From sequence record NC_007456.1: a stretch of 39,704 bases of DNA; one strand, 5' to 3'. Numbering within the stretch: position 1 is the first letter of the stretch; every line of letters begins with the position of its first letter. Below are positions 12,921-38,757 of this stretch, one piece after another. Source of the DNA: Escherichia phage K1F. The notes under the pieces are model-generated. The model saw nothing but the letters and a program-made list of their open reading frames with translations, ran no database searches and was not told the origin of the DNA. Made by a program: the position numbers and the translations under genes.

Positions 12921-14936
12921 ATGTTTGACCTTAAGGATATTTGGGGTTCGGACATCGAGACCAACGGTCTCCTTGACACCGTGTCCCAGTTCCATTGTGG
13001 GGTCCTGATTAATGCCGAGTCGAATGAGACCCTTAAGTATGGGGTAGCGCCGATGGTCGGTATCGTCGGTGGCTTCAAAGAGTATGTACAGAAGGTGGAA
13101 GAAATTGCTGCAACGCCTACGGGTATGCTGGTCTTCCATAACGGTATCAACTATGACGTCCCGGCTATAGACAAGCTGAAGCGTTTGTACTTTGGGAAAC
13201 GATTTAACTTCCCGAAACACAAGATGATTGATACCTTGGTGCTGGGCCGCTTGATGTATCCCAACATTAAGTTCTCAGACATGGGAGCGGTGAAAGCTGG
13301 TCGTCTGCCACCTAAGATGATGGGACGCCAGTCTCTTGAGGCTTGGGGCTATCGTCTCGGTGAGATGAAAGGTGAATACAAACACGATTACGTTGCCAAA
13401 TGCAAGGCTGAAGGTATCGAATATAAGGCTGGGGACGAATGGTTGTTCCCGTCTCAGGAGATGCTGGACTATAACGTTCAAGACGTTGTGGTCACACTGG
13501 CGTTGTTCAAGAAGTTCCTGACTGACAAGTATTACTTCCAGTCTGAACAGTTCGCTTTCGAACAGATTTATGCGTTGCGTCTGGAACATGATGCTGCGTG
13601 GACCTGTGCTAAGATGGAACGTAACGGCTATCCAATGAACACAGAGATGGTCGAAGGCTTATATCGTGAACTCACCGTCAAACGTGCAGAGTTGCTGGAC
13701 AAGCTGCGTTCGACTTTCGGTAGCTGGTACGCACCAAAGGGAGGCAAGGAGTTCTTCAGGCATCCACGGACAGGTAAGGACCTTCCGAAGTATCCGAGGG
13801 TCGTGTATCCTAAGGTTGGTGGCATCTTTAAGAAGCCGAAGAACAAAGCTCAACGATTAGGTCTTGAACCTTGTGAACGCGATACGCGAGACACGATGGA
13901 GGGAGCACCATTCACACCTATCACTTACGTTGAGTTTAATCCGGGAAGCGGGGACCACTTAGCGAAAGTTCTGATGGAGCGTGGCTGGGAGCCTGTGGAC
14001 TTCACTGACACCGGGAAACCTGTAGTCGATGACGAGACGTTAGAACATGTTAAGTTACCAGACGCAGAGGCTCAGGCTTGCGTAGAGCTGGTCCGTGAGT
14101 ATCTGGTAGTCCAGAAGCGCATAGGTCAGGCTGCTGAAGGTAAGAACGCATGGTTGAAACTTGTAGGGCCAGACGGACGTATGCACGGTTCAATCAACCC
14201 ATGTGGTGCAGTAACCGGACGTGCTACCCATAGTTCACCAAACATGGCTCAGGTCCCGGCTAACGGTGCTCCGTATGGTGAGACTTGCCGTGGTGCTTTC
14301 GGTGCAGCTTGGAACAAGACGGATGGTAAGCCAGACCCTTGGATTCAAGTGGGTGTGGATGCTTCAGGTCTTGAGCTTCGTTGTCTGGGGAACCGAGCGG
14401 CTCCGTTTGATGGTGGTGCCTATGCGAAGACTGTGGTAGAAGGTGACATCCACTGGGCCAACGCAGTAAACGCTGGGTTAGCACCTAACGTCCCACGCGA
14501 TAAGTCGAACCACGACCATGATGCTTTCCGTAATAACGCTAAGACGTTCATCTATGCGTTCCTGTATGGTGCAGGGGCCGCTAAGATTGGACTGATAGTA
14601 GGCGGTGGTAAGAAGGAAGGTTCAGCTCTCATGAAGAAATTCATTGAGGGTACACCAGCCATCAAAGACCTCAGGGAAGCTGTGAGTAATACGTTAATCT
14701 CTGAGTCCAAATGGGTAGACGGTGAGAATATCGTGAAGTGGAAACGCCGCTGGCTTAAAGGCTTGGATGGTCGACGCATCCACATCCGGTCTCCACACTC
14801 AGCACTTAACGCCTTACTTCAAGGTGATGGTGCGGTAGTCTGTAAGCACTGGATTGTTGAGACAGAACGTATGCTCGAAGAGGCCGGGTATGTCCACGGC
14901 TGGGAAGGAGACTTCGCGTACATGGCATGGGTGCAT
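12921..14936 (+). CDS. 5: DNA polymerase (T7 gene 5 homolog), exon 1 (672 codons, ends ...YMAWVH)
   Basis: 3'-5' exo motif DIETNGL; ...FHNG.NYDVPA...EAWGYRLGEMKGEYK...DYNVQDVVVT...; ORF track stops at TAA 14937-14939, the first intron codon. Confidence 0.9.
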
Positions 14937-15534
14937 TAACATCATGGTGCACATTAAATCTGGTGAACTCGGTGAACTCCTAATGGGACAATACCGAGCC
15001 AAGCCATAGGGAGGATGTATGAGAGGCAAGAAGTTAATTCTTGAGGCCACTGAGACTGGCTGCATAATCCCTACGTCACATAAATTGAATCAGGATGGAT
15101 ACTTCCGAAAGAGGACTAACGGTGTCCTTGAGATGTATCATAGAACTGTATGGATTAAAGCTAATGGTCCAATACCTGAAGGTTTCGAAGTAGACCACAA
15201 GTGTCGTAATAGAGCTTGTTGCAACGTCGAACATCTACAAGTATTAGACCGTGACTCACACTTAGTCAAGACCAACCAAGAGCGATACGCTGCTAGGAAG
15301 CTAGAAGCACGAGACTACTGGGTAGAGACTGGGTGTACAGGAACGAAGTTAGCCGAAGTATTCAATGTGTCGTTCTCAGCCGCCTGTGGGTGGATTAGAG
15401 AGTGGAAGGCGTAGAGACTATCCGAAAGGAGTAGGGCCGTGGGTGAGATTCCCACGTAACCCGAAGCGCCAGACAGTCACCTCAAAGACTGATGATATAG
15501 TCCGACACTTCCAGTAATGGGAGAATACAGAAAG
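14937..15534 (+). mobile_element. Group I-type intron (598 bp) in DNA polymerase gene, carrying an HNH endonuclease ORF
   Basis: Exon 1 ends in U (14936), intron ends in G (15534); P1-like pairing of exon GUGCAU (14931-14936) with GUGCAC (14947-14952); exons join in frame to give WVH|DELQIACRT. Confidence 0.7.
15019..15414 (+). CDS. HNH homing endonuclease (131 aa) within the intron
   Basis: HNH motif EVDHKCRNRACCNVEHLQV; strong SD AGGGAGGA; free-standing ORF. Confidence 0.85.
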   Translation: MRGKKLILEATETGCIIPTSHKLNQDGYFRKRTNGVLEMYHRTVWIKANGPIPEGFEVDHKCRNRACCNVEHLQVLDRDSHLVKTNQERYAARKLEARDYWVETGCTGTKLAEVFNVSFSAACGWIREWKA

Positions 15535-15690
15535 GATGAGTTACAGATTGCTTGTCGTACTCAAGAAATAGCAGAACGTACAGTCGAAATTGCGCAGCTA
15601 GCTATGCGTAAGGTGGGTGAGTTCTATAACTTTAAATGTGTCCTTGATACCGAAGGTAAGATTGGACCAACTTGGAAGGAGTGTCACTAA
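15535..15690 (+). CDS. 5: DNA polymerase exon 2 (51 codons: DELQIACRTQEIAERTVEIAQLAMRKVGEFYNFKCVLDTEGKIGPTWKECH)
   Basis: Matches remembered T7 DNA polymerase C-terminus (...VGCRTEEIAQ...WNFRCLLDTEGKMGPNWAICH); no SD before in-frame ATG 15517. Confidence 0.75.
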   Translation, partial: DELQIACRTQEIAERTVEIAQLAMRKVGEFYNFKCVLDTEGKIGPTWKECH

Positions 15691-15938
15691 TGGCTATGAC
15701 CAAACGTATGCGAGTTTCGTTCTCGCTGGGTGCTGTGTTGTTAACTGAAAACGTGGAGAACTTCAAGAAGACTCTCTGCGAGCTAAGCCGTAAGGTCCTC
15801 AACGGAGAGAAGACCACTGGTTTTGAGCGTAAGATGGTAGAGGTTGGTGTGACTGAAGGTCTGGAAGCTGTAGTCGAACTGGTCTTCAAGAAAAGTATTT
15901 GTCGACAGTCTGAAAGAAGACCTGAGCAACTACTCTGA
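15690..15938 (+). CDS. gp5.5-like protein (82 aa)
   Basis: MAMTKRMRVSF... resembles T7 gp5.5 N-terminus; AAGGAG SD; ATG overlaps polymerase stop (TAATG). Confidence 0.6.
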   Translation: MAMTKRMRVSFSLGAVLLTENVENFKKTLCELSRKVLNGEKTTGFERKMVEVGVTEGLEAVVELVFKKSICRQSERRPEQLL

Positions 15939-17547: not shown

Positions 17548-17772
17548 ATGTGTTTCAGTCCGAAGATTAGCACTCCGAAGCCTTCGGTCCAAGCACCTGA
17601 ACCAGCACCTCTGAGTGAGGAAGTTGCGTCAGTTGACATCGGGGCTGAATCGGATGTGGACACCAATGAGACCAAAGGTATCAAAGACCTTAAGGTCAAG
17701 AAGGAGTCTGCACCTAAAGATAAATCGTCAGTTAGCCGCGCCATGCGAGCCTCTGGCGTCAACATGGGGTAA
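17548..17772 (+). CDS. gp6.7-like virion protein (74 aa)
   Basis: MCFSPKISTPKP... resembles T7 gp6.7 N-terminus (MCFSPKIKTPK); SD TAGGAGGG. Confidence 0.65.
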   Translation: MCFSPKISTPKPSVQAPEPAPLSEEVASVDIGAESDVDTNETKGIKDLKVKKESAPKDKSSVSRAMRASGVNMG

Positions 17773-17776
17773 GACA

Positions 17777-18181
17777 ATGCTACCATATCTCAACTCACGC
17801 GAAGGTCGCCACATGTGCGCTTGTCGCCTCTGGGAAGACGGGCAGTCTAACTTCAAGTCATTTGAGGACTTCAAGGCTCATACTTACCGTATGGCTGACG
17901 AGTTCGACGGTGAAGAATACACAATATACGATGTCTCAGGTCAACCAGTAGCGTATCTCTACATGCTGGCTACCGCATCTTGGCACCGACCAACTCCCGG
18001 TCTTGACCTTTCAATCGTCGCTATTCGTCGTGACTCGCAGTCCTCCCGCAAGGTTCTTGAGACTGTCAGACACATCATAGACGAAGAGTGCAATCGTTGG
18101 GGTCTTGGCTGGTATTCTCGTGTCAAGCATGTTTCCGGGTCGGTAGACATCGTAACAACTAAGGAGATTAATCGTGGGTAA
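17777..18181 (+). CDS. gp7-like protein (134 aa)
   Basis: ATG 17777 in frame within track ORF 17615..18181; start chosen to avoid overlap with 6.7; positional assignment. Confidence 0.5.
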   Translation: MLPYLNSREGRHMCACRLWEDGQSNFKSFEDFKAHTYRMADEFDGEEYTIYDVSGQPVAYLYMLATASWHRPTPGLDLSIVAIRRDSQSSRKVLETVRHIIDEECNRWGLGWYSRVKHVSGSVDIVTTKEINRG

Positions 18182-18422
18182 ATCAATCAGTAAGGCCTTC
18201 AAGAAAGTGGTGAAAAGTACGCTAGGGACCGTTGGTCTTGGCTCTGATGACGCGCCTAAGGTTGTTGAGGCTCAAACCCCAGCAGCACCAGTGGAAGTAC
18301 CGAACGACAAAGTGGAGGATGTGGATACTGAATCAACCGCATCTGACGAGAAGAAAGCGAAGCGTGCAGGTAAGCGTAGTCTTCAGGTCTCTCGCACCTC
18401 TGGTGGCGGTATTTCTATTTAA
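18174..18422 (+). CDS. gp7.3-like tail/virion protein (82 aa), GTG start
   Basis: MGKSISKAFKKVVKS...KRAGKRSLQVSRTSGGGISI resembles T7 gp7.3 (...KKSLSVARSSGGGINI); GTG 18174 preceded by AAGGAGA. Confidence 0.7.
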   Translation: MGKSISKAFKKVVKSTLGTVGLGSDDAPKVVEAQTPAAPVEVPNDKVEDVDTESTASDEKKAKRAGKRSLQVSRTSGGGISI

Positions 18423-36550: not shown

Positions 36551-37000
36551 ATGCTCGAATTTTTAAAGAGGGCGGCTCCGTGGTTACTTGCAGCAGTGAT
36601 GTTTGCTGGTGGCTACCACACCGCTAACAATAAGTGGGAGGCTAAGGTCAATGCGGAATACACCTCGAATCTTAAGGCATCGGAAGATACAAGGCTTGCT
36701 GTCCAAGCTGAAGTCAACAAAGTGTCCAAACGGTTTCAGGACGAAATGTCCTCGTTGGAAGGCAGCACTGATAGGATTATTGCTGACCTTAAGTCTGACA
36801 ATAAGCGGCTGCTCATCCGAGTCAAACCTACGAGTGGAACCACGCAAAGTGACGGTCGATGCTTCATTGATGGTTACGCCGAACTTGACGAACGAGATGC
36901 TAAACGTCTTATCGCCATCGGAGTGAAAGGAGACAAGTGGATTAAGGCCCTTCAAGACACTGTGAGAGCCTTACAGCAAGAGAAGGAGGTGACGCATTGA
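36551..37000 (+). CDS. 18.5: Rz-like i-spanin (T7 gene 18.5 homolog)
   Basis: N-terminal TM segment ([15 protein letters not shown]), coiled-coil periplasmic domain; SD GGGAGGG. Confidence 0.8.
36651..36926 (+). CDS. 18.7: Rz1-like o-spanin lipoprotein embedded in +1 frame of 18.5 (gene 18.7 homolog)
   Basis: Signal/lipobox [16 protein letters not shown]; ...RWKAALIGL...ISGCSSES...[15 protein letters not shown] resembles T7 gp18.7; ATG 36651 within track ORF 36603..36926 (TTG start). Confidence 0.75.
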   Translation: MRNTPRILRHRKIQGLLSKLKSTKCPNGFRTKCPRWKAALIGLLLTLSLTISGCSSESNLRVEPRKVTVDASLMVTPNLTNEMLNVLSPSE

Positions 37001-38757
37001 GTAAAGACTTAGTGGCGCGTCAGGCGCTAATGACTGCCCGTATGAAGGCAGACTTCGTGTTCTTCCTGTTCGTCCTGTGGAAAGCTCTGTCACTCCCGGT
37101 CCCGACTCGCTGTCAGATTGACATGGCGAAGAAACTATCGGCTGGTGACAACAGGCGTTTCATCTTACAGGCGTTCCGTGGTATCGGGAAGTCCTTCATT
37201 ACGTGTGCATTCGTGGTCTGGAAGCTATGGAACAACCCAGACTTGAAGTTCATGATTGTGTCGGCCTCAAAGGAACGAGCCGATGCGAACTCCATCTTCA
37301 TCAAGCGAATCATCGACCTCATGCCTCAGCTTAAGGAACTCAAACCTAAGCAGGGACAGCGAGATGCGGTTATCAGCTTCGACGTTGGACCAGCCAAGCC
37401 GGACCACTCACCTTCGGTTAAGTCCGTTGGTATCACTGGTCAGTTGACTGGTAGTCGTGCTGACATCCTGATTGCCGATGACGTGGAGGTTCCGAACAAC
37501 TCAGCGACTCAGGCTGCACGAGACCGTCTGTCAGAGCTTGTGAAAGAGTTCGATGCTATCCTGAAGCCCGGAGGCACAATCATCTATCTGGGTACTCCTC
37601 AGAACGAGATGACCCTGTATCGTGAGCTGGAAGGTCGTGGGTACACCACTACTATCTGGCCTGCTCGTTATCCACGCGACAGGAAGGACTGGCAGTCTTA
37701 CGGCGACCGTCTGGCTCCTATGCTTCAGGCAGAACTGGAAGAGGACCCTGAGTCCTTCTACTGGCGTCCGACCGACGAGGTACGCTTCGATGATACGGAC
37801 CTGAAGGAACGTGAGTTGTCATATGGCAAGGCTGGCTTCGCTCTACAGTTCATGCTTAACCCGAACCTGAGTGATGCTGAGAAGTACCCTCTGAAGCTCC
37901 GTGACCTTATCGTAGCCGACTTGGACCCAGCGTCTAGCCCAATGGTATACCAATGGCTTCCTAACCCTCAGAACAAGCGTGAGGACGTTCCTAACGTTGG
38001 ACTCATGGGTGACTCATACCACACGTATCAGACTGTAGGTTCTGCCTTCAGTTCGTACACCCAGAAGATTCTGGTCATTGACCCTAGTGGTCGTGGTAAA
38101 GATGAAACTGGTTATGCGGTACTGTACCAGCTCAACGGCTACATCTTCGCTATGGAAGTTGGCGGTATGCGAGGTGGCTATGAAGACTCTACGCTGGAAG
38201 CCTTGGCTAAGATTGGTCGTAAGTGGAAGGTCAACGAATACGTCATTGAGGGTAACTTCGGTGATGGTATGTACCTTGAGCTATTCAAGCCTGTAGCGGC
38301 CCGTATTCATCCTGCTGCTGTAACTGAAGTGAAGAGTAAGGGTCAGAAGGAACTCCGCATCTGTGACGTTCTGGAGCCTATCATGGGGTCTCACCGACTT
38401 ATCGTTAACGCTGCTGCTATCGTCCAAGACTACCAGTCAGCCTCTGATAAGGATGGTGTGCGTAACCCTATCTACTCTCTCTTCTACCAGATGACCCGTA
38501 TCTCTCGTGAACGTGGAGCCTTGGCACACGATGACCGACTTGATGCGCTGGCTATCGGTGTACAGTTCTTCGTTGAGTCGATGGCTAAGGATGCCAACAA
38601 AGGCGAACGTGAAGTCACTGAGGAGTGGCTGGAAGAACAGATGGAGAACCCACGGAAAGGCTTCGAGTCCATCCACACTGAGTTCTGGGACAATGGGGTC
38701 CGGGTAACTCATGATACAGACGAGCTGGGACTAGGGTCCTACGTTACGTTCCATTAG
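36997..38757 (+). CDS. 19: Terminase large subunit (T7 gene 19 homolog), 586 aa, apparent TTG start
   Basis: ...[50 protein letters not shown]... nearly identical to T7 gp19; TTG 36997 preceded by AAGGAGGTGA, overlaps 18.5 stop. Confidence 0.93.

Follow-up and report, generated by a model that had tools for sequence, protein, structure and literature searches.

The window, that is, the whole 39,704-nt stretch of Escherichia phage K1F DNA that was analysed (NC_007456.1), contains at the right end of the genome gene 19, coding for the large subunit of terminase and preceded by genes 17, 17.5, 18 and 18.5/18.7 in the same order as in phage T7. Gene 7.3 is located far upstream, between the gene 7 homologue (gene 6.8) and the portal gene 8. 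Neither gene 19 nor gene 7.3 begins with ATG. The features of the two start regions are listed in Table 1.

Table 1. Features at the starts of genes 19 and 7.3 of phage K1F (positions of the window; SD, Shine-Dalgarno sequence)
Feature	Position	Strand	Basis
Gene 7.3 SD, TAAGGAGA	18160..18167	+	Direct reading; 8 nt, 6-nt spacer; -9.1 kcal/mol
Gene 7.3 GTG start codon	18174..18176	+	Earliest start codon in the ORF; both K1F records annotate it
Gene 7.3, 82 aa, no internal Met	18174..18422	+	ORF; Pfam PF11653; alignment with C-terminal half of T7 gp7.3
Gene 6.8 (gene 7 homologue) TAA stop	18179..18181	+	ORF 17615..18181; 8 nt into gene 7.3
Gene 18.5 (Rz-like spanin)	36551..37000	+	ORF; annotated as 18.5; weak Pfam Rz match
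Gene 19 SD, AAGGAGGTGA	36983..36992	+	Direct reading; inside the 3' end of gene 18.5
Candidate small hairpin pairing the TTG and the 18.5 stop, SD unpaired	36993..37017	+	Folding; weak evidence
Gene 19 TTG start codon	36997..36999	+	First ATG/GTG/TTG past the in-frame TAA; start in NC_007636
Gene 19, terminase large subunit, 586 aa	36997..38757	+	ORF; Pfam; homology to T7 gp19; PDB matches
Gene 18.5 TGA stop	36998..37000	+	2-nt overlap with the TTG (TTGA)
Met12 ATG, rival gene 19 start	37030..37032	+	Used by the 39,704-bp K1F record (575 aa) and by MN510331
Met16 ATG, rival gene 19 start	37042..37044	+	Used in the ZG49 record (locus position 542 = codon 16)

Judged by its domains, its full-length similarity and its genome position, the product of gene 19 is a T7-type terminase large subunit (gp19). 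It possesses both domains by which the T7 type is recognized, the Terminase-T7_RNaseH-like nuclease domain (PF22530, 6.2e-38, residues 361-468) and the terminase ATPase N-domain (PF03237, 1.4e-5, residues 61-176), each scoring above its curated cut-off. The K1F and T7 proteins are both 586 aa long and share 66% identity over 577 residues, in an alignment that begins at K1F residue 8 and hence upstream of Met12. A solved relative of 586 aa, 8dgc_E, is aligned with the K1F protein from residue 1 (5.5e-247), and 4bij_A is matched with 1.4e-216.

The assignment of the gene 19 start to the TTG at 36997, proposed in the earlier note, is well supported by the SD, by the absence of alternatives, by conservation, by N-terminal homology and by existing annotation. 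The terminase frame is closed by a TAA at 36943-36945, and no ATG, GTG or TTG occurs between it and position 36997. The SD comprises 10 nt in perfect complementarity to the 3' end of 16S rRNA, with a duplex energy of -17.4 kcal/mol, the third strongest among 58 K1F genes. The spacer between SD and TTG had been given as 6 nt; it measures 4 nt (CGCA), or 7 nt when counted from the GGAGG core. With a 10-nt SD and a spacer within the 4-9 nt expected of SD-led non-AUG initiation, gene 19 belongs to this class, as does gene 7.3 with its 8-nt SD and 6-nt spacer. Since the TGA of gene 18.5 occupies 36998-37000, start and stop overlap as TTGA, just as had been read before.

Comparison of start codons among homologs, the check suggested beforehand, was carried out for gene 19 on 28 K1F-like sequences (13 of them distinct); the sources were IMG/VR, GenBank and the window, and the search patterns accepted any letter as first base of the codon. 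TTG is present in 28 of 28. The 13 positions formed by AAGGAGGTGA and the TTG are invariant in the 13 distinct K1F-like junctions, in contrast to the spacer, where three of four positions vary; as these phages are close relatives, few independent events stand behind the invariance. A pattern scan recovered the TTG in three metagenome contigs as well, three other pattern matches being unrelated sequences found by chance. CCT is the final sense codon of gene 18.5 in 7 of 17 distinct junctions, so that the first T of the TTG is four-fold degenerate for gene 18.5 and a change to CCA would give an ATG and leave the 18.5 protein unaltered, yet the T is kept. In K1F itself a change of TTG to ATG would replace the last residue of 18.5, His, by Gln. 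By this reasoning the coding constraint of the overlap does not account for the retained TTG.

The non-ATG starts of both K1F genes are already known. A 2.3-kb segment around the gene 19 start is 100% identical to the other K1F entry, AM084414 / NC_007636 (39,699 bp), to which the window is offset by +5; after this offset the sequences and the annotated starts are identical without any difference, gene 19 beginning at the same TTG and gene 7.3 at the same GTG. As these starts are publicly annotated and the reference start of T7 gene 19, which they mirror, is itself a GTG, the novelty of the start sites is nil; the T7 GTG was absent from the earlier note. The public records nevertheless disagree about the terminase. 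CAJ29395/YP_424964 has 586 aa counted from the TTG, whereas AAZ73005/YP_338131, from the 39,704-bp K1F record, has 575 aa and starts at Met12, as deduced from an exact look-up of the 575-aa protein. Among six sampled K1F-like records, TTG is used in four, Met12 in MN510331 and Met16 in ZG49. A general statement that ATG is the sole start codon is found in a paper on Citrobacter phages of the K1F-like type (PMC4925675). The literature search found nothing specific on GUG initiation of T7 gene 19, on K1F start codons, on non-canonical terminase starts or on the abundance of T7 gp19, and it turned up neither proteomics nor ribosome profiling of K1F.

Some public records deserve comment for other reasons. 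Those labelled 'Enterococcus phage EFA-1' and 'Acinetobacter phage vB_Aba_01KA' have about 96-97% nucleotide identity to the K1F terminase region, and such hosts would not be expected within a coliphage genus; Morganella phage MopsHU1 comes about as close. MN510331 has a length of 39,704 bp and gene coordinates as in the window, yet its identity is only 96.7%. K1F gene 5, coding for DNA polymerase (window about 12922-15691), is given in RefSeq as a join of two pieces with the HNH endonuclease gene 5.3 in between, an arrangement that suggests an intron with a homing endonuclease.

The GTG start of gene 7.3 at 18174, likewise claimed in the earlier note, holds: TAAGGAGA lies upstream of it, NC_007636 is annotated in the same way, and an ATG start is impossible because the 82-codon ORF contains no in-frame ATG. 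The GTG overlaps the end of gene 6.8, whose stop codon ends 8 nt into gene 7.3. The protein matches PF11653 (VirionAssem_T7) with 5.7e-10, above the cut-off, and is 49% identical to T7 gp7.3 in its C-terminal 49 residues. With this T7 virion assembly / host-range protein it shares a basic N-terminus (MGK...KK; MGKSISKAFKK in K1F and MGKKVKKAVKK in T7), the C-terminal SGGGI(S/N)I (SGGGISI and SGGGINI, respectively) and a site just before the portal region. In 23 K1F-like loci, taken from IMG/VR portal-gene loci carrying 7.3 upstream, the same codon is GTG in 21, ATG in one and TTG in one. Such variation among close relatives is the behaviour of an initiator, as a change at an internal codon would alter the residue, and it also indicates that GTG is not strictly required. 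Gene 7.3 starts with ATG in T7 and in every non-K1F-like genus sampled; GTG at this codon characterises the K1F-like clade. The earlier view that both genes pair a strong SD with a non-ATG start stands for terminase and fits gene 7.3 less well, as the SD energy of the latter is average (genome median -8.95 kcal/mol).

Two sets of candidates were set aside during this survey. TTG starts called automatically for gp7.3 in L126 and L133 were dropped in favour of an ATG with its own SD two codons upstream, and 122-140-aa 'members' of the gp7.3 cluster were rejected as extended gp7.3, being gene 6.8/7 homologues. The 90%-identity protein cluster that contains K1F gp7.3 (82 aa) and mixes in these 122-140-aa proteins looks like a clustering artefact. 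As for gene 6.8 itself, the start given in RefSeq is a TTG (window 17624) that falls some 150 nt within gene 6.7. Its homologues are annotated with 122-140 aa and start with MLPYLNS (corresponding to a window ATG near 17777, just past the 6.7 stop) or MCACRLWEDG, and the annotated TTG thus looks too far upstream.

T7 gene 19 (NC_001604) resembles K1F gene 19 in family, length and genome position and in combining a strong SD (TAAGGAGG in T7) with a start codon other than ATG; it differs in several details. The T7 gene is annotated from a GTG at 37370 rather than from a TTG, and its SD is shorter (-12.1 vs -17.4 kcal/mol). Its GTG lies 22 nt past the 18.5 stop whereas the K1F TTG overlaps that stop, so that stop/start coupling to gene 18.5 is not conserved between the two phages. 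The first in-frame ATG of T7 gene 19 is residue 42, inside the conserved block.

Start codons of the large terminase gene (terL) were compared across 31 loci, T7 included, with at least 69% identity to K1F over the N-terminal region; the loci were grouped by hand into 14 lineages, were sampled as the 'best 80' from one collection, and had their starts called by SD strength and homology only. Non-ATG starts occur in seven of the 14 lineages, namely TTG in the K1F-like phages and L024 and GTG in T7, L010, L017/L032, L022/L023 and L028, and ATG in the other seven. In T7, L024 and L028 the calls are unambiguous because no in-frame ATG precedes the conserved block; the remaining four non-ATG lineages do have a downstream in-frame ATG, rejected only for its missing SD and the loss of homology. 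Genes 17.5, 18 and 18.5 of the same loci show one non-ATG start in 41, against 7 of 14 for terL (Fisher p = 1.2e-4): gene 18 always begins with ATG, as does gene 18.5 essentially throughout, and T7 provides the only exception for gene 17.5. The portal gene has ATG in 63 of 67 loci and a non-ATG start in only one of 12 comparable lineages (p = 0.036 against terL). The SDs of non-ATG terL lineages are the stronger ones, with a mean of -13.8 vs -11.8 kcal/mol (one-sided Mann-Whitney p = 0.02). Genome-wide, non-ATG starts are annotated for 8 of 58 genes in K1F and 6 of 57 in T7, mostly small or doubtful ORFs. Taken as a modest and preliminary result, T7-like phages seem to use non-ATG starts disproportionately for their large terminase.

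The sister contigs L017 and L018 encode terL proteins with near-identical N-termini, the former from a GTG at 1474 (VNKDQQ...) and the latter from an ATG at 1471 (MANKDQQ...), differing in both codon and register; this pair shows that the start codon can turn over rapidly and easily at terL. More distant T7-like relatives appear to use ATT, or CTG or ATA, for the large terminase. In contigs L041 (1477), L043 (1474) and L044 (1477) no ATG, GTG or TTG is present before the conserved block, and the best candidate start is an ATT 6 nt past GAGGTGA that overlaps the upstream TAA (ATTAA). For L078 (about 1459-1464) the only candidates are CTG and ATA, overlapping a TGA (CTGATA). Other distant relatives have the stop/start junctions TAGTG (L070) and TAATG (L045). 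In E. coli reporters, codons other than AUG, GUG and UUG support 0.01-2% of AUG initiation (bioRxiv 10.1101/063800). A separate peculiarity was encountered in the terL homologues of L016 (1318-1503) and L019 (1327-1503), which possess a Pro- and Lys-rich N-terminal extension of about 60 aa (MPRRKIDPEFVGPMPKRRKK...) that is absent from K1F and T7.

Translational coupling through overlapping stop and start codons, at junctions of the ATGA or TAATG type, is familiar from bacterial and phage operons. The K1F gene 19 junction shares with these the four-base NTGA overlap, with two shared bases, and an SD inside the upstream gene; it differs in starting with TTG instead of ATG. An overlap of the kind that could permit coupling is found both at TTGA (36997-37000) and at gene 7.3, whose first 8 nt, from the GTG at 18174, still belong to gene 6.8.

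The explanation that accounts best for these observations, and in which considerable confidence can be placed, is that gene 19 is translated from the UUG at 36997 to give the 586-aa large terminase. Its 10-nt SD, fully complementary to the 3' end of 16S rRNA, would recruit ribosomes 4 nt upstream of the UUG, and as the UUG overlaps the UGA of gene 18.5, ribosomes finishing 18.5 could also restart there by termination-reinitiation coupling. For gene 7.3, translation would begin at the GUG at 18174, which follows an ordinary SD and overlaps the end of the upstream gene. The combination of a non-AUG codon with an extended SD may further set terminase output at a level preferred by selection, since terL, alone among the nearby genes, repeatedly uses GTG or TTG in T7-like phages.

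Tuning of expression by the start codon, as the earlier note had supposed, is plausible, and published measurements bear on it in two ways. When the initiation region was optimised, mRNA with a UUG start performed in vitro like AUG mRNA from 20 to 40 deg C (PMC5499595), so that a UUG preceded by a 10-nt SD need not be a 'weak start'. In the same study nutrient limitation and ppGpp affected every non-AUG start more strongly (PMC5499595), which offers an alternative to down-tuning: terminase synthesis might be tied to the physiological state of the host. A wider form of the idea is that selection in T7-like phages favours non-AUG initiation of terL, by GTG or TTG and in distant relatives apparently by ATT, CTG or ATA, in many cases joined to the stop codon of the preceding gene, with dosage or host-state dependence set at the start codon and with ATG lineages compensating by weaker SDs. 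This wider form is possible and should be regarded as rather doubtful.

It is very improbable that the terminase begins instead at Met12 or Met16, with the TTG unused, although several public annotations do so, as described above. The first 11 or so residues are poorly conserved between genera, which also speaks for a later start. Variable sites among K1F-like sequences are distributed over the three codon positions as 2/3/4 in codons 2-11 and as 10/4/26 in codons 12-50, so that codons 2-11 lack a third-position excess and offer no independent sign of coding in their substitutions; the extreme N-terminus is simply poorly constrained. Neither ATG is accompanied by an SD (-4.0 kcal/mol at Met12 and -2.0 at Met16, vs -17.4 at the TTG), and the invariant 10-nt SD points, at the correct spacing, to the TTG. 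Met12 is replaced by Val (GTG, again without an SD) in ZG49-like relatives, and both positions are non-Met in T7 gp19, that of Met16 being Leu. Homology to T7 gp19 reaches upstream of Met12, that to 8dgc_E extends to the first residue, and the lineages T7, L024 and L028 indicate that the family clearly tolerates non-ATG starts.

A more serious contender, although short of an even chance, is that the TTG and GTG are genuine starts without any tuning role, produced neutrally by mutation and overlap at sites where a strong SD makes the codon nearly irrelevant. The equality of UUG and AUG in vitro is in its favour, as are the shifts of the 7.3 codon between GTG, ATG and TTG within near-identical phages, the GTG/ATG difference between the sisters L017 and L018, the presence of ATG in half of the terL lineages, and the position of the first base of each start codon inside the coding sequence of the upstream gene. 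Neutrality is harder to reconcile with the concentration of non-ATG starts in terL relative to three neighbour genes and the portal gene of the same phage groups, with the retention of TTG where ATG would be synonymous for gene 18.5, and with the still rarer candidate codons of the distant relatives. Obligate coupling, in which gene 19 translation depends mainly on ribosomes ending at the 18.5 stop because a hairpin blocks independent initiation, and terminase output late in infection tracks spanin translation, is unlikely. It would draw on the TTGA overlap, on the stop/start overlaps at distant terL genes (ATTAA, CTGATA, TAGTG, TAATG), and on the hairpin at 36993-37017, which pairs both the TTG and the TGA with -8.7 kcal/mol (z = -2.2; 7 of 200 shuffled sequences fold as well). 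The hairpin is marginal, however, its stability ranging from -1.4 to -8.7 kcal/mol among K1F relatives, and the 101 nt around the gene 19 start fold no better than shuffled sequence (z = -1.0). At the T7 gene 19 start, where a 22-nt gap separates the two genes, folding revealed no equivalent hairpin, and the free 10-nt SD of K1F should permit independent initiation. Under the preferred explanation, in which ribosomes would both enter at the free SD and resume after finishing 18.5, a ribosome terminating on 18.5 would open the hairpin.

For the K1F clade the practical value of these results lies in annotation: where the records conflict, the evidence favours the TTG, which restores 11-15 N-terminal residues to the terminase. 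Gene-specific control through the start codon, if true, would be a modest addition to the understanding of late gene expression in T7-like phages, and would be relevant to engineered K1F or T7 genomes in which the starts are 'cleaned up' to ATG.
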